Virus record (IMG/VR): IMGVR_UViG_3300025390_000524
Span: 6,365-70,364 of that record
DNA: 64,000 bases
Origin: a virus
Lineage: Duplodnaviria > Caudoviricetes
Strand: one strand, 5' to 3'
Part shown: positions 35,089 to 56,341 of the stretch, piece after piece
How the letters are laid out: every line of letters starts with the position of its first letter
Numbering within the stretch: position 1 is the first letter of the stretch
Translations under genes and position numbers: made by a program
The notes under the pieces: generated by a model
Told to the model about the DNA's origin: nothing
Seen by the model: only the letters and a program-made list of their open reading frames with translations
Database searches by the model: none

Positions 35089-35604
35089 TTATTTAGCTTT
35101 ATTTTCTATTGTACCAACTTCACTAAAATCATAAATCTTAGGAGGTTGTGCTGTTCCTACAATTAACGATTGTGTCAAGACATCATTAGAATCTTTGATA
35201 GAACGTTCAATAATTTCTTTTTGAGTTTTGCTCAGTCCTTCCAATGCCAAAAATCCACAACCAACAGCTTCGATTAAAACAGCATAGAGGTTGTTTAAGT
35301 CCCAAGAGAAAGTATCAATATTATCTAATGAACGGATTTTAAAAGATTCTGGAATACTATCTTTATTATTGCGTTTAAAAAATGTAGCAACCTTTCCAGA
35401 ACGAAATACTATAGAAGGTTTAATGTTTTCTGTAATTTTATAACTCAATATAAAATCATCTAGCAATTGCTTTAACGTTCCAGCTTTCTTAAAACCAATT
35501 AATGTAAAACTTTTATCTTCACTATTAAACGTAAAGGCAGCAGCCCCCACAATATTTATATTTTGAGATGACGTGCCAATACCAAAAATTAAAGCTTGCG
35601 ACAT
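35089..35604 (-). CDS. Hypothetical protein
   Basis: Likely start ATG 35604 (MSQALIFG); the longer ORF-track start runs into the last CRISPR repeat. Confidence 0.5.
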   Translation of the reverse strand: MSQALIFGIGTSSQNINIVGAAAFTFNSEDKSFTLIGFKKAGTLKQLLDDFILSYKITENIKPSIVFRSGKVATFFKRNNKDSIPESFKIRSLDNIDTFSWDLNNLYAVLIEAVGCGFLALEGLSKTQKEIIERSIKDSNDVLTQSLIVGTAQPPKIYDFSEVGTIENKAK

Positions 35605-35654
35605 AAAAAAAATAACCTTCCAAAGCTTGAAAGGTTTTGTTAATAAAATTGTAT

Positions 35655-36207
35655 CAAAAAAATAGGTCAAGAAGGCAACAGGTTAGAAACTCGCCTGCCT
35701 TAGCACGATCCGTTAACCAAGACCTATAGGCAGTTGCAAATAGGTTAAGAAGGCAACAGGTTGGAAACCAATCAACCTAGTTCTATAGATGCACTTTTGG
35801 CTAGGTTGCAAAAAGGTTAAGAAGGCAACAGGTTAGAAACTTTCTTTTGATTTGATTATTAGTTTCCTCATATTGGCTGTTGCAAAAAGGTTAAGAAGGC
35901 AACAGGTTAGAAACTCTATCATTGTCAGAGAAGTTGAACGTTCTAGTTCTTTAGTTGCAAATAGGTTAAGAAGGCAACAGGTTAGAAACGGTAGGATGTT
36001 GTCAATCTTGACATTATCTGATCCTGTTGCAAATAGGTCAAGAAGGCAACAGGTTAGAAACTATAATGCCAGGTTGGGGAATCTATCGATGAATAGCGTT
36101 GCAAATAGGTTAAGAAGGCAACAGGTTAGAAACTAGATGTTTTTTTTACAGATTGAGACTGAGTAGCAAGGGTTGCAAATAGGTCAAGAAGGCAACAGGT
36201 TGGAAAC
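35655..36207 (-). CRISPR. CRISPR array A: 8 repeats (36 bp; minus-strand consensus GTTTCTAACCTGTTGCCTTCTTAACCTATTTGCAAC), 7 spacers of 36-42 nt
   Basis: Repeats at 35655 (degenerate trailer), 35733, 35805, 35879, 35954, 36026, 36098 and 36172; spacers 42, 36, 38, 39, 36, 36, 38 nt. The degenerate repeat on the left and the leader on the right give minus orientation. Confidence 0.97.
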
Positions 36208-36345
36208 AGGGCAACATTTTCAAAAGCCATTTCCGAGGGGTAAGTTTTTAGATCGCTGAAATGAACTTTTAACTTTTTTAAAATGGCATCAAAGCCAGTC
36301 TGGGTAAAGAGTCGAGGGCTAGCACGAAAGAATAATAGTTTCATA
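36208..36345 (-). promoter_or_regulatory. Leader of array A
   Basis: Non-coding region adjacent to the undegenerated terminal repeat; minus strand '..TTTCAGCGATCTAAAAACTTACCCCTCGGAAATGGCTTTTGAAAATGTTGCCCT|GTTTC' resembles cyanobacterial chromosomal CRISPR leaders (from memory, not searched). Confidence 0.65.
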
Positions 36346-36377
36346 GGTTTAATTTGTTAAATTGATTGAGCTGTTAG

Positions 36378-36610
36378 CCCCTCTCTAAGAGAGTAAAGTG
36401 TGCCTCGTCAATGTTAAAAAAGTTTGTCATGTTAATTACACTGTTCCTACCTTAAAAGAACTGTTTAATAATTAACCATAGGGCTGGGGACTGGCTTGTA
36501 TCCCAAGGTATGATAGCTTTTTTAACGTAGTCAATTAAGACTTAGACTGGGATCCATAGTTCGTTAATAGCCGTTTGATTAGCTAAAAGAACTTTGCCTT
36601 CTTAACTTAT
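36378..36610 (-). ncRNA. omegaRNA/HEARO-derived tracrRNA-like scaffold, copy A (anti-repeat 36594-36610)
   Basis: Minus strand carries IscB omegaRNA hallmarks (CAGTCTAAG, CTACGTT, ACCTTGGGA..GCCAGTCCC, TTAAACAG, AACAGTG, TAACATTGACGAGGCACACTTTAC). Its 5' end ATAAGTTAAGAAGGCAA is complementary to the repeat; GATAAT -10 box at 36615-36620. Confidence 0.85.
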
Positions 36611-36660
36611 ACTTATTATCCCATAGTCAAAATTTGTACAAAAACCCTATTTTTTCACAT

Positions 36661-36685
36661 AAAAAAACCACCTATTAAAAGGTGG
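36661..36685 (-). terminator. Rho-independent terminator downstream of iscB
   Basis: Minus strand CCACCT-TTTAAT-AGGTGG followed by T7. Confidence 0.8.
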
Positions 36686-36708
36686 AGTTAGGTCAAGAAG
36701 GCAACAAG

Positions 36709-38082
36709 TTAGAAACTTGGAGGCGGTGACACAACTGGAGTTAAATTGATAGGTGGTTTGAAAGTATAAGCATAGCCATCTTTATGATGTAAAACTTGGC
36801 AGTATTCGTATTTAACGGCTTCAACTTTGCATCCTTTAGGTAAAGTAAAATTACCATCTTTTTTAATGGTGACTTTTCCTATTGCAGTTTTACCAGCGTA
36901 TTTGTTTTTTAAGTGAGCTGGAACAACGGCTTTAACTATATCCCCAGTTCTAAACTCAAAATATTTTCCTGTTTTGTTGTCAATAGCACTAAATGGACCT
37001 CTAAGTTTAGGTTTGGATATTGGTGTGCCATAAGCGTTGTTGCGTACCATTTGTCTACAACCATGCCCAAATGCTTTGATTTGTAATGGCTGAGTAGTCA
37101 AGAATGTTAGATTATCTATTTTTTTACCAACACAGGCAGCGTCTATCCAATGAGTTTTTGGTAACTTCAAAGTAATTCTGTTGAATTTGGTTTGTCCGCC
37201 TGAACCTACTTTTAAAGTTAATCCAGTTTCTTTTAATGAATTAAACAAAGCCCATCTGGTAGAGTTAACGGCTGCGGCATCTCTTAATGGAGCTTTAGCT
37301 TGTGCTTTTATCTTTTTTAGTAGTTCTGGTTTCTTTGCCAAAAATTCTTCAATTGGTCTATTGCTTTTAGTTTGATTGCATTTAACACAAGCCAACAATA
37401 AATTTGCTACTCGATTACTTCCACCTTTTGATTTTGGATGAATATGATCCACGTCAAACGGTACGTTTTTGATTCCACAATAGGCGCAAGTACGATTCCA
37501 TTTTTCTAAAAGGTATTCTTTGGTTTCGTATCCCGCCAAAGTGCCATGTTGATATTCAACTCCAGAAATTTCAGCATTTTCCATTTTTTGAGTATCAAAC
37601 TTGATTAATTCTTGAAAAAGAGCAGTGATTGGCGCAATTCTTCTTAGGCGTTCAACCCAAGTCATAGTGGTATAAACACGATGTTTTAAACTTGGTGCTA
37701 ACCAACCTTTGACTTCTGCTCTTTTCCTATTAAGAAAACGAGCTTTACGATATCTGGTTTTACGTCCCCTACGTCCACTTCTAATCGCTCTACGTTTTTG
37801 TAAAGCATCTTTTATAGCAAAACCACGATGCTCAATTTCAGCACCCCAAATAACATCTTTGCCATTGAGAATTGCCAATCCAGTAAACTTTGAACCTGGG
37901 TCTATTTTTAATGCCAATTCTGTTTTAACTTCATAAGTGATAGCTTGTTTTAAAATGATTGTAAAAGGATACAATTTTAAAACTGCAGCTTTACCAGAAT
38001 TTAGTAACTTTCGTGCGCGTGAAGGTTTAACTGGTGCTAATGGTTTTTTATTAGCGTCAACACAAAATATATAGTTAGACAT
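36709..38082 (-). CDS. iscB: IscB RNA-guided endonuclease (RRXRR/PLMP + split RuvC + HNH), CRISPR-associated
   Basis: PLMP 'KKPLAPVKPSRARKLL'; RuvC-I 'KIDPGSKFTG'; Arg-rich bridge helix 'RRAIRSGRRGRKTRYRKARFLNR'; RuvC-II 'FQELIKFD'; HNH 'CAYCG..DHIHPKSKGGSNRVANLLLACVKCNQTK'; RuvC-III 'THWIDAACVG'. Confidence 0.95.
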   Translation of the reverse strand: MSNYIFCVDANKKPLAPVKPSRARKLLNSGKAAVLKLYPFTIILKQAITYEVKTELALKIDPGSKFTGLAILNGKDVIWGAEIEHRGFAIKDALQKRRAIRSGRRGRKTRYRKARFLNRKRAEVKGWLAPSLKHRVYTTMTWVERLRRIAPITALFQELIKFDTQKMENAEISGVEYQHGTLAGYETKEYLLEKWNRTCAYCGIKNVPFDVDHIHPKSKGGSNRVANLLLACVKCNQTKSNRPIEEFLAKKPELLKKIKAQAKAPLRDAAAVNSTRWALFNSLKETGLTLKVGSGGQTKFNRITLKLPKTHWIDAACVGKKIDNLTFLTTQPLQIKAFGHGCRQMVRNNAYGTPISKPKLRGPFSAIDNKTGKYFEFRTGDIVKAVVPAHLKNKYAGKTAIGKVTIKKDGNFTLPKGCKVEAVKYEYCQVLHHKDGYAYTFKPPINLTPVVSPPPSF

Positions 38083-38098
38083 TTGCTGAAATCAATTG

Positions 38099-38525
38099 GT
38101 TGCATTTAGGTCAAAAAGGCAACAGGTTGGAAACTTGGTTATTTTGGAAACTTGTTTGTGTTGCATTTAAGGTCAAAAAGGCAACAGGTTGGAAACGGCA
38201 GCAATACTGAAAGAATAAGTGTTTGGTTTTTAAGTTGCAAATAGGTCAAAAAGGCAACAGGTTGGAAACTTCGTGAACAGCTGGTTGCAAATAGGTCAAA
38301 AAGGCAACAGGTTGGAAACTGGGTTCAGTTGTCAACCGTTTTATCCAAAAATTTGCTAGTTGCAAATAGGTTAAGAAGGCAACAGTTTGGAAACTTTTAT
38401 CTCGTGGAGAATTAACCCTCGTGATTTATCAAGTTGCAAATAGGTCAAAAAGGCAACAGGTTGGAAACATTTTCAGTGATAAAGATCACGTTGCAAATAG
38501 GTTAAGAAGGCAACAGGTTGGAAAC
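38099..38525 (-). CRISPR. CRISPR array B: 7 repeats, 6 spacers (25, 37, 14, 39, 38, 21 nt), directly upstream of iscB
   Basis: Repeats at 38099, 38160, 38234, 38284, 38359, 38433 and 38490; dominant minus-strand variant GTTTCCAACCTGTTGCCTTTTTGACCTATTTGCAAC. Confidence 0.95.
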
Positions 38526-38555
38526 CTCTTAAAAAAAATTGATTGAGCTTTTGGC

Positions 38556-38787
38556 TCCTCTCTAAGAGAGTAAAGTGTGCCTCGTCAATGTTAAAAAAGT
38601 TTGTCATGCTAATTACACTGTTCCTACCTTGAAAGAACTGTTTAATAATTAACCATAGGGCTTGGAACTGGCTTGTATCCCAAGGTATGATAGCTTTTTT
38701 AACGTAGTCAGTTAAGACTTAGACTGATTTCCCTAGTTCGTTAATAGCCGTTTAATTAGCTAAAAGAACTTTGCCTTTTCAACCTAT
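38556..38787 (-). ncRNA. omegaRNA/HEARO-derived tracrRNA-like scaffold, copy B (anti-repeat 38771-38787)
   Basis: Near-identical to copy A. 5' ATAGGTTGAAAAGGCAA pairs with array-B repeats; GGAAAT (38727-38732) pairs with the repeat 5' GTTTCC; GATAAT -10 box at 38792-38797. Confidence 0.88.
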
Positions 38788-38837
38788 ACTTATTATCTCA
38801 TAGTCAAAAATTGCACAAAACACACCATTTTTCACAT

Positions 38838-38861
38838 AAAAAAACCACCTACAAAGGGTGG
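38838..38861 (-). terminator. Rho-independent terminator after array C
   Basis: CCACC..GGTGG hairpin followed by T7; paralog of 36661-36685. Confidence 0.7.
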
Positions 38862-38864
38862 AGT

Positions 38865-39087
38865 TAGGTTAAAAAGGCAACAGGTTGGAAATATCCTTCT
38901 CGTTGCAAATAGGTCAAAAAGGCAACGGTTGAAAACTGGGTGTCCCACCAGAATTTTTACACTGTCCGTTGCAAATAGGTTAAGAAGGCAACAGGTTGGA
39001 AATATCCTTCTCGTTGCAAATAGGTCAAAAAGACAACGGTTGGAAACTAATAATCGTTAATAGGTCAAGAAGGCAACGGTTGGAAAT
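38865..39087 (-). CRISPR. Degenerate CRISPR array C: 5 repeats/partial repeats, spacers of 9, 31, 9 and ~8 nt
   Basis: Repeats at ~38865 (partial), 38902, 38968, 39013 and ~39056; the 9-nt spacer ATCCTTCTC occurs twice. Confidence 0.8.
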
Positions 39088-39114
39088 TACTCTAGAAAGA
39101 ATACTATTTTAATT

Positions 39115-40560
39115 TTAACCAAAAATCCCCCTAGTAGCAGTTAAAGCAAATGCCAAGCTCATAATAATATCGTCATGTCCACCAGCTTGTGCTTCTAGTT
39201 TATTTTCAAGTTGTCTAAAACTTAAAAGTTCTTCAATGATTATTCTATCTGGAGGCAAAATTAAAACATTGCGTTCCATTGCCAATAGTAGTTTATTGAT
39301 CATTACTGGTTTACTAACACCAGTGGTTTTTATCTGATCAATGTTGACGTTAGGATTGATTTTAATTAACTGTTCATAGTAAATAATCCCACCAGAATTA
39401 ACTTCAATTCCTACTGCTACTGGTTGGTATTTTTGCAATAATAAACTGAGGTTATGAATTTGTAATTCATTGGTAAGTTTACGTTTGCGGTAAAGGTCAA
39501 CCAGATACAATTTATCGCCAATAGATTTTAAAACAGTAGCTACCGTATAGTCAGCACCCATCAAACTGGTATCAATACCAAGATAGTAAGAAGCGTTAGG
39601 ATCTGGTTCGCGTTCCCATTCTCCAACGGTAGTTAACCTGATCAATTCTGCACTAAATACACTGGTCGCAGCATCAGTAAAGTTTAAATTATATTCTTGT
39701 TCTACAATTTCTTGGGTCAATCCAAATCTATCTTTGAGGGTTTCTAGATAGGTTTCTTTTTGTTTACCAAATTTTGGATGATCGTACCAGTGGGTAACAA
39801 ATTTACAAATACCTTTACTATCAGTCCAATATTGAGTAGGCGGTACTTTATTATTTCTGATACCTTCACAGATTGCTAAAAAATCATGACCATCATTGCC
39901 ATCTGCCAGCTGGTTATAATACCAACCAGTTTGACCATTTGGTGTGCTTAAAATTATTACTTTGGCTTTATCGCCTACCATTGTTGTACAGGGTATAGCA
40001 GATTTATAAATATCTTCAATCCCATCCACAAAGGCAGCTTCGTCAAACAACAACATATGGACTGATTCTATTCCCCTTGCACCATTGGCGGTAGAATTAC
40101 GAAACAACAACCTAGAACCGTTAGGAAAAGATATATCAGTTAAACTATCGGTTACTGGTTCTCCATATTGATGCAAAAATTCTAAAGTTTTACGTAATCG
40201 TTTAGCTAAGCTGGAGGTATCCTGTTGGGTTTTACTAAAAGCTACACAGAGAAAACCAGGATCTTTTAACGCTCTCCACAACGCATAATTGATGCAGGTT
40301 TCGGTTAGACCCAATTGTCTAGTTTTGGCAACAACAGTGGTTATATGACCTTCTATCTGCTCTACCAGTCGTTCTTGATAGGGGTAGGGAACAAAATGGA
40401 CAATACCATCACCAGAACGGATTTTACAAAGCTTGGCAAACTCCACCCAAGTATCAGGCACGTCAAGTTTACCAGGATCTTTTACTATACCTACAATTTT
40501 GTGGTGATCTCTTTGGTTCCGTTCTTCAATGATTGCTCTAAATTTCGACCTGTTGCTCAC
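39115..40560 (-). CDS. terL: Terminase large subunit
   Basis: 'AKTRQLGLT' (Walker A variant), 'LLFDEAAF', 'ILSTPNG', nuclease 'LGIDTS' and 'GHDDIIMSLA'. Confidence 0.9.
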   Translation of the reverse strand: MSNRSKFRAIIEERNQRDHHKIVGIVKDPGKLDVPDTWVEFAKLCKIRSGDGIVHFVPYPYQERLVEQIEGHITTVVAKTRQLGLTETCINYALWRALKDPGFLCVAFSKTQQDTSSLAKRLRKTLEFLHQYGEPVTDSLTDISFPNGSRLLFRNSTANGARGIESVHMLLFDEAAFVDGIEDIYKSAIPCTTMVGDKAKVIILSTPNGQTGWYYNQLADGNDGHDFLAICEGIRNNKVPPTQYWTDSKGICKFVTHWYDHPKFGKQKETYLETLKDRFGLTQEIVEQEYNLNFTDAATSVFSAELIRLTTVGEWEREPDPNASYYLGIDTSLMGADYTVATVLKSIGDKLYLVDLYRKRKLTNELQIHNLSLLLQKYQPVAVGIEVNSGGIIYYEQLIKINPNVNIDQIKTTGVSKPVMINKLLLAMERNVLILPPDRIIIEELLSFRQLENKLEAQAGGHDDIIMSLAFALTATRGIFG

Positions 40561-41414: not shown

Positions 41415-42521
41415 ATGGACGAAAAATTAAGCAAAATCAACCAAAAACTCAACAAAATTAAACTCAGAATAAAAGGAAATCGAATTTATTTACGTGGTAC
41501 GCTTCCTCCCAAACCACAAGATGGTGAACTACCACGTCAATATGACCTGTCAACTGGATTACCAGCCAATAACGAAGGAATCAATATAGCCTACGGTAGA
41601 GCGCTAGAAATGGAATCTAGATTGATTTTAGATAGGTTCTCCTGGGCAGATTATCTGGGTGAAGGGATAATGGGAATTAAACCAATATCTTTGTGGATTG
41701 AAGAATTTACTGAATACTATTGGAATATCAACGTTAAAACCGTTAAGAAAGAACATTATTTTAACAACGCCTACTACCTGCACCTACGGCAATTGCCTTT
41801 AGACCAACCACTAAGCGAAAAAATCATTATTGAATATTTAACAAAACTAGAACCATCTTCGGCTATCAGACAAAAACGCTATCTGGTCTATAAAAAATTA
41901 TTAAGTTTTGCAAATATCAAGCATGACCTGAGCCACCTACATACTAAATATACGCCAGCTATTGAACGTGATATTCCTACTGACAGGCAGATTGAAAAGT
42001 TTATAGCAAAAGTTTCTCCAGAATACCGTTGGATTTTTGGGATGCTTGCCGCCTATGGCTTGCGTGGACATGAATTGATGGAACTAGATACCAGTAAAAT
42101 CAATTCTAAAGTGCCAGTAGTCTATGTTAATTCAGATACTAAAACAGGTTCACGGTCGGTCTATCCAATGTTGCCAGAATGGGTAAGCAAATTTAATCTA
42201 GCCGAGCGCTACATTCCAGAATCTATTACCAAATATACCAACGTCATAGATTTTGGCAATGTTTTAAGCTGGTATTGTAAAAGAGAAATGCGTAAAAAAT
42301 TTAATCAAAAGATGACCGCCTACTATTTTAGGGATGCCTATGCAATTAGGTGCGCTCTCCAGGGCGTAGATTCAACTACTGCTTCCAAATGGATGGGACA
42401 TTCAATTACTATGCACCAAAAATCCTATCTGAAATTCTTTGATGAAAACCACCATGAACAACTCTGGCTAAACGCACAAAAAAAGGATACAAAAACTGCA
42501 CCCTTTACAAACAACCAATAG
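41415..42521 (+). CDS. int: Tyrosine integrase (cyanobacterial phage type)
   Basis: 'IYLRGTLPPK' N-terminus, 'AYGLRGHE', 'YYFRDAYAIR', 'WMGHS', 'HQKSY'. Confidence 0.88.
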   Translation: MDEKLSKINQKLNKIKLRIKGNRIYLRGTLPPKPQDGELPRQYDLSTGLPANNEGINIAYGRALEMESRLILDRFSWADYLGEGIMGIKPISLWIEEFTEYYWNINVKTVKKEHYFNNAYYLHLRQLPLDQPLSEKIIIEYLTKLEPSSAIRQKRYLVYKKLLSFANIKHDLSHLHTKYTPAIERDIPTDRQIEKFIAKVSPEYRWIFGMLAAYGLRGHELMELDTSKINSKVPVVYVNSDTKTGSRSVYPMLPEWVSKFNLAERYIPESITKYTNVIDFGNVLSWYCKREMRKKFNQKMTAYYFRDAYAIRCALQGVDSTTASKWMGHSITMHQKSYLKFFDENHHEQLWLNAQKKDTKTAPFTNNQ

Positions 42522-54052: not shown

Positions 54053-54655
54053 ATGACCAGTATTTTAATTGAAGGAATCGACGGCACTGGTAAAACTTCT
54101 TTAGCAATTGCTCTAGCTGCCAAACTGAACTATACCTACCTTAAACATCCAAGCGCTTGGTATTACGACAACGAAACAACTTCAGCCTATTCTAATGCCC
54201 ACCTGCATGTTGCTGATTTCTATATTAATAGTGATTTTATTGCTACTAACAATGTAGTAATAGATCGCTATTTACCGAGCCACATGGCTTACGAAATCCT
54301 AACGCCTAATGCCTCTAATGCGGTAGATTGGTATAGAGTTGCCCAAAACGTAGCAATTCCAGATATTGTGTTTTACTTGGATTGTTCGGTGCAAGAATCT
54401 TGTAAACGTCTTGAAACCAGAATTAAAAAAGATTGGCAAGAGACCACAATGCAATTAAATATTGTGCGCCGAAATTATCTAGAAAACGTTATCCCTTTAC
54501 TAAAAATAAAAGGCTGGAAAATCTATACAATCGATGCCCACCAACCAATTGATGTAATCGTCAATAAGTGTATAGAGTTTTTGTATCGTCATAACGAATC
54601 TTTGCAATTGCCAGAACTTCCAAAAGGTAAAAGCTATTATGTCGCAAGGGTATAG
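54053..54655 (+). CDS. tmk: Thymidylate kinase
   Basis: 'ILIEGIDGTGKT', 'VVIDRY', 'PDIVFYLD'. Confidence 0.85.
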   Translation: MTSILIEGIDGTGKTSLAIALAAKLNYTYLKHPSAWYYDNETTSAYSNAHLHVADFYINSDFIATNNVVIDRYLPSHMAYEILTPNASNAVDWYRVAQNVAIPDIVFYLDCSVQESCKRLETRIKKDWQETTMQLNIVRRNYLENVIPLLKIKGWKIYTIDAHQPIDVIVNKCIEFLYRHNESLQLPELPKGKSYYVARV

Positions 54656-54968: not shown

Positions 54969-56341
54969 TAGAAACCCCGTCGTTCACGACGGCTTTATAG
55001 AAGTGGATGAAATCTGCCAGTATGAACTGTCACTAAATACTAGCAATCTTACAAAAGATATTTTAGAATGTAAACATGGAAAAAGCCTATCGCTACCGTT
55101 TCTATCCCACTAGCGAGCAAGAATCACTCTTGCGCAGGACAATGGGTTGTGCACGGCTAGTCTATAACAAGGCTCTAGCTGTTCGGACTGAGGCTTGGTA
55201 CGAACGACAAGAGCGAGTTGGCTATAGCCAAACGTCCTCCATGTTGACAAATTGGAAACAAGACTCCGCTCTTGAGTTTCTGAATGAAGTTAGCTGTGTT
55301 CCTCTTCAGCAAGGACTTAGACATCTCCAAGCCGCATTTACTAACTTCTTTTCTGGTCGGGCAAAATATCCCAACTTTAAGAACAAACATAATGGCGGTA
55401 GTGCTGAATTTACTAAGTCTGCTTTTCGGTGGAGAGATGGGCAAGTCTTTTTGGCTAAATGTGCTGAGGCTTTGCCAATTCGTTGGAGTCGCAAGATTCC
55501 CGAAGGTTGCACACCCTCGACTATTACCGTCAAGCTGACACCATCTGGTCGCTGGTTTGTATCCTTGAGGGTGGATGACCATACTGTTAAGCCATTTCCA
55601 AAGGTCGATGTCTTGAATGGACCGCTCATGGGAGAAACCACCAAGACTTTGCCTGTCCACAAATCGATTGGTTTGGACGTTGGCATAAATAGTTTGATTG
55701 CCACTAGTGACGGTGATAAGATAGCCAATCCCAAGCACTTTAAACAGCTTCGGAAGAAGCTGAGACGGGTACAGAAAGCACTGTCTCGAAAGCAAAAGGG
55801 AAGTAACAACAGACACAAAACTAGATTGCAAGTAGCTAAAGTCCATGCACAGATAACTGATGCTAGAAAAGATTTTTTGCATAAGCTGACAACTCAACTG
55901 GTTCGTGAAAACCAAACGATCGTAGTTGAAGATCTGGCTATCAAAAACATGGTCAAGAACCATAAACTTGCACTTGCGATTAGCGATGCAAGTTGGGGAG
56001 AATTGATTCGTCAACTTGCATATAAATGCGAATGGTATGGGCGAGAATTGATTAAAATTGACCGATGGTTTCCTAGTTCTAAAAGGTGTGGAAACTGTGG
56101 ACATATCGTAAATAAGCTGTCGCTGAATATCAGAGAGTGGGAATGTCCGAAATGTGGAACTAACCATGACAGAGATGTGAATGCGGCAAATAACATTTTG
56201 GCGGCAGGGCTTGCCGTTTCAGTCTGTGGAGCAACTGTAAGACCCGAAGAGAGTAAGTCTCGGAAGGCTGGTGTTTTGAAGCAGAAACCTAAATAGCGAT
56301 GTTTAGGAATCCCCGTACCTTTAGGTCGGGGAGGATGTCAA
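54969..56341 (+). mobile_element. Non-autonomous IS200/IS605-family (IS1341-like) element, tnpB only
   Basis: Left-end hairpin CCGTCG-TTCA-CGACGG; right end 'GGAATCCCCG..CGGGGAGGATGTCAA'; no tnpA. Confidence 0.88.
55076..56296 (+). CDS. tnpB: RNA-guided endonuclease TnpB (IS200/IS605)
   Basis: 'AYRYRFYPT', 'GLDVGI', 'VVEDLA', Zn finger CGNC..CPKC, 'DRDVNAANN'. Confidence 0.93.
   Translation: MEKAYRYRFYPTSEQESLLRRTMGCARLVYNKALAVRTEAWYERQERVGYSQTSSMLTNWKQDSALEFLNEVSCVPLQQGLRHLQAAFTNFFSGRAKYPNFKNKHNGGSAEFTKSAFRWRDGQVFLAKCAEALPIRWSRKIPEGCTPSTITVKLTPSGRWFVSLRVDDHTVKPFPKVDVLNGPLMGETTKTLPVHKSIGLDVGINSLIATSDGDKIANPKHFKQLRKKLRRVQKALSRKQKGSNNRHKTRLQVAKVHAQITDARKDFLHKLTTQLVRENQTIVVEDLAIKNMVKNHKLALAISDASWGELIRQLAYKCEWYGRELIKIDRWFPSSKRCGNCGHIVNKLSLNIREWECPKCGTNHDRDVNAANNILAAGLAVSVCGATVRPEESKSRKAGVLKQKPK

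Follow-up and report, generated by a model that had tools for sequence, protein, structure and literature searches.

A CRISPR-linked iscB locus in a cyanophage whose ancestral omegaRNA probably works as two RNAs

We analysed a 64,000-nucleotide (nt) stretch of viral DNA, here called the window, which comes from a 70,364-bp IMG/VR virus record that is ~81% complete. Judged by its terminase, which shares 39% identity with the terminases of Nodularia phages and 32% with those from Cylindrospermopsis phages, and by the lake-metagenome origin of its relatives, the carrier is a freshwater-lake phage infecting filamentous cyanobacteria. Positions 35600-39100 of the window hold, entirely on the minus strand, a gene for the compact nuclease IscB, three CRISPR arrays and two RNA scaffolds related to omegaRNA, the guide RNA of IscB. 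[quoted passage not shown]

Read 5' to 3' on the minus strand, the locus begins with array C, a hairpin followed by seven Ts, a TGnGATAAT box, scaffold B, array B and iscB. After iscB come a lone repeat, a second hairpin with seven Ts, a second TGnGATAAT box, scaffold A, a leader, array A and a terminator-like hairpin. The features are as follows.

38858-39088, minus strand: array C, five degenerate repeats with spacers of 4-31 nt
38838-38861, minus strand: terminator-like hairpin and T7 run (terminator 1) in the interval between array C and scaffold B, kept in relatives
38792-38800, minus strand: extended -10 box TGnGATAAT before scaffold B, a consensus match only
38771-38787, minus strand: anti-repeat B, the 5' end of scaffold B, from pairing analysis
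38735-38770, minus strand: internal stem-loop AGTTC...GAACT, by position the second hairpin of the omegaRNA 5' region
38727-38732, minus strand: hexamer GGAAAT, complementary to the first six bases of the repeat; in omegaRNA terms the first stem's 3' strand
38541-38787, minus strand: scaffold B, tracrRNA-like and omegaRNA-derived by HEARO match and alignment, with small hairpins and a T8 run at its end
38099-38525, minus strand: array B, A-type and B-type repeats intermixed (seven, each 36 nt), spacers 14-39 nt long
36709-38082, minus strand: iscB, 457 amino acids (aa), RRXRR/RuvC and HNH domains, from Pfam and PDB matches and alignment
36689-36716, minus strand: lone 3'-truncated repeat over the iscB stop codon, from the repeat survey and alignment
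36661-36685, minus strand: terminator-like hairpin and T7 run 3' of iscB, from the terminator scan
36615-36623, minus strand: extended -10 box TGnGATAAT before scaffold A, a consensus match
36594-36610, minus strand: anti-repeat A, from pairing analysis
36364-36610, minus strand: scaffold A, a paralogue of scaffold B, by HEARO match and alignment
36550-36555, minus strand: pre-nexus hexamer GGATCC of scaffold A, with no match to the repeat 5' end
36208-36363, minus strand: leader of array A, 155 nt, with a promoter-like TTAACA, 17 nt, TATTAT at 36360-36332 (consensus match only)
35655-36207, minus strand: array A, eight 36-nt repeats and seven spacers of 36-42 nt, the terminal repeat degenerate
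35606-35636, minus strand: terminator-like hairpin and T8 run 3' of array A, from the terminator scan

Array C contains an internal 111-nt duplication of two repeats, and its final, 3'-truncated repeat adjoins terminator 1. Array B ends 16 nt before the iscB start codon. No TnpA-like open reading frame (ORF) was found in the stretch bounded by the terminase gene (39115-40560) on one side and the ORFs that follow array A on the other, and the locus does not look like a resident IS200/IS605 element with TnpA and transposon ends.

By both domain content and size, the 457-aa ORF encodes an IscB. It matched the Pfam families RRXRR (8e-68) and HNH (1.3e-12), and in a search of the PDB the IscB structures ranked best, and chains of the related Cas9, IsrB and HNH-domain kinds matched less well. 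It aligns collinearly, at 58% identity, with a 423-aa cyanobacterial transposon IscB, and the gaps in the alignment are only small insertions in the C-terminal part. There is no insertion resembling a recognition (REC) lobe, and the protein does not have the makings of a Cas9-size effector. The motifs IDPGS, DHIHP and HWIDAA, which hold D61 of RuvC-I, the HNH histidine and the H/D pair of RuvC-III, are identical in the homologue, and on this comparison the catalytic motifs are intact. About 20 proteins, all from lake metagenomes, cluster with it at 90% identity or more; the next relatives stand at 58%. The last 16 codons and stop of iscB (36709-36760) run into the lone repeat, and the 423-aa homologues end earlier.

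The original prediction had taken the two scaffolds for derivatives of omegaRNA, and a search with the Rfam HEARO model (RF02033; gathering cut-off 83 bits) bore this out. Scaffold B matched at 38769-38570 with 119.2 bits and scaffold A at 36555-36393 with 118.0 bits. The CAG nexus, pseudoknot and 3' body align well in both copies, and in both the first stem strand of the model is unmatched or deleted. Canonical relatives in cyanobacteria and in a Microcoleus phage retain this strand in cis. By these model matches, the scaffolds are genuine homologues of omegaRNA (HEARO) in which no 5' strand is present in cis. Over 300 nt each, the A and B modules are 92% identical. In copy B the nexus, CAGTCTAAG, directly follows the hexamer GGAAAT. 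As had been proposed, each scaffold starts with an anti-repeat just past a GATAAT box, which lies 4 nt upstream in both copies (38797-38792 and 36620-36615); the location of the first anti-repeat bases was right, although the expected 5' ends of ~38786 and ~36609 were each one base off the actual 38787 and 36610. The AGTTC/GAACT stem-loop described as an insertion is present in every cofold prediction.

We compared the window with eleven related contigs from lake metagenomes, called by L numbers where they need to be told apart, and aligned 14 scaffold copies. The order of terminase, CRISPR-IscB block and downstream phage genes is kept in all eleven contigs, and the modules follow the same order wherever their sequence is present. 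All 14 copies conserve the anti-repeat, the scaffold body and the TGnGATAAT box, with TGn standing before GATAAT in every one. Uninterrupted scaffolds of the relatives score 111.8-117.5 bits, the single lower value belonging to a copy broken by an N gap. In two relatives (L001:800-1075 and L030:4770-5000) scaffold B and array B are deleted, leaving a degenerate anti-repeat remnant before iscB, and the downstream A-type scaffold and array are kept. L001 gave no HEARO match, its upstream scaffold being deleted and its downstream one lying in an N gap. Outside the block, a 368-aa ORF at 41415-42521 on the plus strand is syntenic in all relatives; precomputed Pfam assignments place its orthologues in XisAC_N and XisAC_2nd, families of XisA/XisC-type recombinases, which would fit a temperate phage of heterocyst-forming cyanobacteria.

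The scaffold 5' ends are complementary to the repeats. Across the 64-kb window, the anti-repeat 17-mer has minus-strand matches only at anti-repeats A and B and 19 plus-strand matches, which are the repeats, compared with 0.45 matches on average in a shuffled control. Anti-repeat B pairs with the B-type repeat over 17 of 17 positions (15 Watson-Crick pairs and two G-U), exactly as first described, and none of 2000 shuffles reached a 17-bp helix. Anti-repeat A pairs 16/17 with the A-type repeat of the window and 17/17, all Watson-Crick, with the dominant array-A repeat of L003, L025 and L029; in L029, anti-repeat B likewise pairs 17/17 with that contig's own array-B repeats. With anti-repeats of this extent on the same strand as the scaffolds and arrays, both scaffolds would qualify as tracrRNA-like. 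The A-to-G change in the scaffold that had been matched to a T-to-C change in the repeat proved to be strictly compensatory: all A modules have C-G and all B modules U-A at this pair, including in the partial repeat upstream of each scaffold. In L030 a G-C pair stands where others have A-U or G-U.

A second segment of the repeat is complementary to the scaffold. GGAAAT, originally noted immediately before the nexus and located at 38732-38727, can pair with the first six bases of the repeat, and all six B copies keep 6/6 pairs. The two segments of the repeat, bases 13-29 facing the scaffold 5' end and the 5' hexamer facing the pre-nexus hexamer, have the right order and polarity to bind one scaffold together. 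RNAduplex formed both helices at once between repeat B and scaffold B (-23.6 kcal/mol). In cofolds of repeat and scaffold, the co-folding suggested at the outset was borne out for the 17-bp duplex, which appeared in all four repeat/scaffold pairings, but not for the 6-bp pre-nexus helix, which was absent from the minimum-free-energy structure when the spacer folded on itself and was recovered for B by RNAduplex. Cross pairings between A and B cost only ~3-5 kcal/mol.

The same design recurs in unrelated CRISPR-linked IscB loci. Three metagenomic loci (L016, L014 and L011), with 41-46% identity to the window in IscB, have both arrays and HEARO scaffolds. At L016 (4843-5684) the array comes first, then a gap with a promoter-like site, then the scaffold, whose 5' end pairs over 10 bp with an inner segment of the repeat and whose pre-nexus hexamer complements the first six bases of the repeat. 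L014 (1967-2396) has both helices, with a 12-bp duplex, and a gap with a promoter-like site between array and scaffold. At L011 (1063-1633) the array's last repeat runs directly into the scaffold, so that both helices form in cis. Because the sequences of the three loci differ, both helices are supported by covariation across lineages, which is the strongest evidence for the structural model. The recurrence also shows the two-helix design to be a general property of CRISPR-linked IscB and not a peculiarity of the window phage. The proposal that the repeat has replaced the omegaRNA 5' strand, with the array lying 3' of the scaffold and pairing in trans, is thus supported by homology, by two complementary segments and by recurrence in three loci.

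Pairing in the phage might instead take place within one molecule, a reading that the cis repeat of L011 would favor. In DelIscB (457 aa), spacer, repeat and anti-repeat lie on a single RNA, and a version with a truncated repeat/anti-repeat hairpin is active (PMC12660989). By analogy, one transcript could run from the repeat upstream of each scaffold, namely the final array-C repeat for B and the lone repeat by the iscB stop for A, through a weak hairpin, into the scaffold, forming a cis omegaRNA by an intramolecular hairpin and leaving the downstream arrays accessory or inactive. A partial repeat does lie ~70-75 nt upstream of each scaffold, pairing 15-16/17 and carrying the same module-specific C-G or U-A pair. 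Nevertheless, a hairpin and T7 run separate this repeat from each scaffold, and the "spacer" before it would be a conserved stretch of 8-9 nt at scaffold B (the last spacer of array C) and fixed 3' coding sequence of iscB at scaffold A. In L025, L031 and L032 the cis repeat has a decayed 5' hexamer, and in L030 it lacks its whole 3' half, whereas the scaffolds and downstream arrays are intact. A cis RNA would also leave the spacer turnover in arrays A and B unexplained. We therefore regard this alternative as quite unlikely.

That turnover is pronounced. The window and its close relatives L003, L024, L025 and L029 each have a set of array-A spacers entirely of its own. Array B varies in the spacers next to the scaffold, and those next to iscB are common to relatives, which places the leader of array B on the scaffold side. 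Alternative spacers also occur at repeat borders in contigs of four lake metagenomes. The 111-nt unit of array C is polymorphic as well, being absent from contigs of lake metagenomes X1 and X4 (window 38873-38985), but this is a tandem duplication and not spacer acquisition. With array A regular, array B holding seven repeats, array C degenerate, and with spacer turnover and foreign matches, we read these as CRISPR arrays, and the arrays 3' of the scaffolds look live. Since they are located 3' of the scaffolds, the arrays that turn over cannot be contiguous cis guides, and the only routes by which guides of arrays A and B can reach a scaffold are pairing in trans and long-range fold-back of a single transcript.

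The second of these routes would require one long transcript, with scaffold and downstream array expressed from the TGnGATAAT promoter and folding back as a circularly permuted omegaRNA, cleavage being optional. It would suit the same-strand order of scaffold, array and terminator in both modules, the gap of only ~15 nt between scaffold B and the first array-B repeat, and a promoter scan that called no site from scaffold B to array B and iscB; because no promoter was called there, read-through of the T8 run would be needed to express array B and iscB. Yet scaffold B ends in small hairpins and that T8 run, and array A has its own 155-nt leader with a promoter-like site. In L016 and L014 the array lies upstream of the scaffold, so co-transcription in the order scaffold then array is not a general requirement. 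Moreover, spacers past the first would need intermolecular or long-range pairing, which is equivalent to pairing in trans. We think such a transcript unlikely, though it retains some chance of being correct.

Spacer matches were found at two sites in sibling phages, of which one lies in iscB; they involve three spacers, carried by two relatives. In L004 the array-B spacer nearest to iscB (L004:3414-3448) matches iscB antisense (window 37931-37965; L030:5136-5170), 34/35 in L030 and L001 and 31/35 in its own copy. This could mean targeting of the iscB of rival phages, or autoregulation. In L029, each of arrays A and B holds one spacer that matches window 54470-54507, within an ORF at 54053-54655 on the plus strand, at 3-5 mismatches when the spacers are compared in full. 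Both L029 arrays carry this same spacer, and a 406-aa ORF (55076-56296, plus strand) lies directly downstream of the protospacer gene. That the targets found are sibling phages fits competitor exclusion, and suggests that phages may use CRISPR-IscB against their siblings. The protospacer flanks, AGGATA and AAAAGG, are two sequences, too few to define a target-adjacent motif (TAM).

Taken together, these features most likely represent a working dual-RNA CRISPR-IscB used in conflict between phages. Each ~245-nt scaffold would be transcribed from its own extended -10 promoter and start at the anti-repeat, which would stand in for the guide-adaptor strand, while the nexus, pseudoknot and 3' body of the omegaRNA are kept. 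Arrays A and B, downstream on the same strand, would yield crRNAs made of a spacer followed by a repeat. Bases 13-29 of the repeat would form the 17-bp duplex with the scaffold 5' end, assembling in trans, and in B scaffolds only, a second helix would join the first six bases of the repeat to the hexamer that precedes the CAG nexus. Such pairing would rebuild the 5' three-way junction of the omegaRNA and place the 3' part of the spacer at the position of the omegaRNA guide. Processing might be carried out, for example, by host RNase III. IscB would then cut matching DNA next to a suitable TAM, mainly in sibling phages.

Several observations weigh against this interpretation. The covariation of scaffolds with arrays is real but modest, with few events: strict compensation amounts to one pair fixed between paralogous modules plus the G-C variant of L030. 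The window and L024 carry one uncompensated change in the pairing of anti-repeat A, which leaves a mismatch in the scaffold A duplex of the window. Array-B repeats mix A and B types, and several are degenerate with indels, so the claim that each anti-repeat varies together with its own array held for the compensatory pair and proved loose otherwise. The pre-nexus hexamer of the eight A copies (GGATCC and variants) makes only 3-4 of 6 pairs with the repeat 5' end, and a search by eye found no other register; because L001 and L030 keep only an A-type scaffold, the short helix would have to be dispensable if their systems work. A 17-bp duplex is short for RNase III. A sigma-70 scan did not call the proposed scaffold promoters, which are without a good -35 element. 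At both protospacer matches, the mismatches lie close to the repeat-proximal end.

The origin and targets of the window's own spacers add to these difficulties. No target was found for its seven array-A spacers: window spacers had no match outside arrays among the fetched loci, the array-A spacers had none among GenBank phages save one 87% chance-level match to a Lactobacillus phage, and three window-spacer 25-mers had no exact match in IMG/VR. Cas1 had no match anywhere in the 70,364-bp record (81% complete), a search that did not extend to cas2 or cas4. One scan of genome representatives for an array with the window repeat gave only single chance matches, and IMG/VR gave none. With no cas1 in the record and no same-repeat array elsewhere, spacer acquisition is unexplained.

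Difficulties of this kind could also mean that the locus is a decaying relic, a phage-captured IscB transposon whose omegaRNA pieces and arrays were spread by recombination and have no present RNA-guided function. The absence of adaptation genes among the Cas1 search results would agree with decay, as would the degeneracy and very short spacers of array C and parts of array B, the lack of scaffold B and array B in L001 and L030, and the lack of pre-nexus pairing in scaffold A. However, the iscB frame is intact in the ~20 cluster members of at least 90% identity, D61 of RuvC and the HNH and H/D RuvC-III motifs are conserved relative to a homologue of the active family, and the scaffolds score 112-119 bits at every locus save the one N-gap copy. 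In addition, array A has regular spacers of 36-42 nt that are unique to each relative, and some spacers of relatives match sibling phages. We consider a functionless relic very unlikely, and continue to favor a guide that works as two RNAs.

Part of this idea is already in print, and it is less new than the original prediction assumed (PMC12660989, PMC9581776, PMC10734277): CRISPR-associated IscB with a repeat/anti-repeat RNA, and a crRNA replacing the omegaRNA 5' strand, have both been published. New here are a phage as the carrier, scaffolds that each have a promoter-like box and lie upstream of active arrays, and two scaffold paralogues, together with spacer turnover without adaptation genes and spacers aimed at sibling phages. 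Arguments about how omegaRNA gave way to crRNA:tracrRNA have so far drawn mainly on structures and on a handful of CRISPR-linked IscB loci. The phage family offers a natural and well-sampled case, with variation across eleven contigs, a pair of paralogous scaffolds and a form that lacks one of them, and potentially adds a compact 457-aa nuclease with a naturally dual RNA. As the layout argues for trans pairing and the protein is unchanged, the question is testable by simple reconstitution.

More tentatively, the virus may host a live snapshot of the passage from the OMEGA systems of mobile elements to CRISPR on the Cas9 branch: an unmodified IscB, a separate tracrRNA and crRNAs, arrays still gaining spacers (presumably through host Cas1-Cas2), exclusion of sibling phages that extends to their iscB, and two tracrRNA paralogues tuned to two repeat types. 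This fuller account is possible, but we hold it with less than even confidence. If it were true, RNA splitting would have preceded protein enlargement, and the system would be the IscB counterpart of TranC.

Among known systems, the closest relatives of the window IscB are canonical transposon IscBs with complete omegaRNAs. Canonical IS200/IS605 IscBs from cyanobacteria (L061 and L063) and from a Microcoleus phage (L066) are 55-58% identical to it, and L066 has a complete omegaRNA. The canonical HEARO RNA has the same nexus, pseudoknot and 3' body as the window scaffolds, and its guide is expected 5' of the first stem. It differs in that both inner hairpins, like the first stem strand, are carried in cis, that its one guide is fixed by the transposon flank and that there is no array. 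An iscB of the Nodularia phage vB_NspS-kac68v162 (L065, record 62017-67288) is 55% identical and is accompanied by an adjacent small transposase gene and an IS607-type element; L065 gave no HEARO match at the gathering threshold.

By its gene content, the locus also belongs to the class of CRISPR-associated IscB, as defined in PMC12660989 and PMC10734277, an association that arose several times (PMC10734277). This class goes back to Altae-Tran et al. 2021 (Science 374:57), as relayed in PMC12660989, PMC11610941, PMC10734217 and PMC10734277; in those accounts its members, DelIscB among them, resemble the window in having a compact IscB that lacks the REC lobe beside an array and an omegaRNA-like RNA with repeat and anti-repeat, and are read, like the window system, as intermediates between OMEGA and Cas9. 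The IsrB structure paper had proposed that crRNA took the place of the ascending strand in the 5' stem of omegaRNA (PMC9581776). DelIscB has a one-molecule RNA and an upstream array, and its authors leave processing of that RNA into two parts unresolved (PMC12660989). In the window, by contrast, the arrays that turn over lie downstream of the scaffolds, each scaffold has its own promoter-like box, and a terminator-like hairpin stands between the upstream repeat and the scaffold; there are also two scaffold paralogues, three arrays and a phage carrier, and the lineage is different. The equal length of the two proteins is coincidental. Compared by named residues only, none of the 18 residues that PMC12660989 names for DelIscB matches here or in any fetched relative, and we rejected identity with it.

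Type II Cas9 systems share with the model of the window a dual RNA, a repeat:anti-repeat duplex followed by a nexus, and a spacer 5' of the repeat. The window differs from them in its IscB-sized effector without a REC lobe, its full-size ~245-nt omegaRNA scaffold and its lack of a cas1 match, and its B copies would form two intermolecular helices around an internal hairpin where type II has one continuous duplex. Other phages of filamentous cyanobacteria also carry arrays without adaptation genes, namely vB_AphaS-CL131, with a type V-U2 TnpB-like effector (PMC6293099), and Nostoc phage N-1. Their effector is TnpB-like or absent and no tracrRNA was found, whereas the window pairs IscB with two omegaRNA-derived scaffolds. 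Finally, TranC, a set of TnpB-to-Cas12 intermediates summarised in PMC13565253, is described there as showing functional RNA splitting in experiments. The evolutionary step would be the same, a transposon guide RNA split into tracrRNA and crRNA while the protein stays near the transposon nuclease; TranC represents it in the TnpB/Cas12 family by experiment, and the window in the IscB/Cas9 family by sequence alone.

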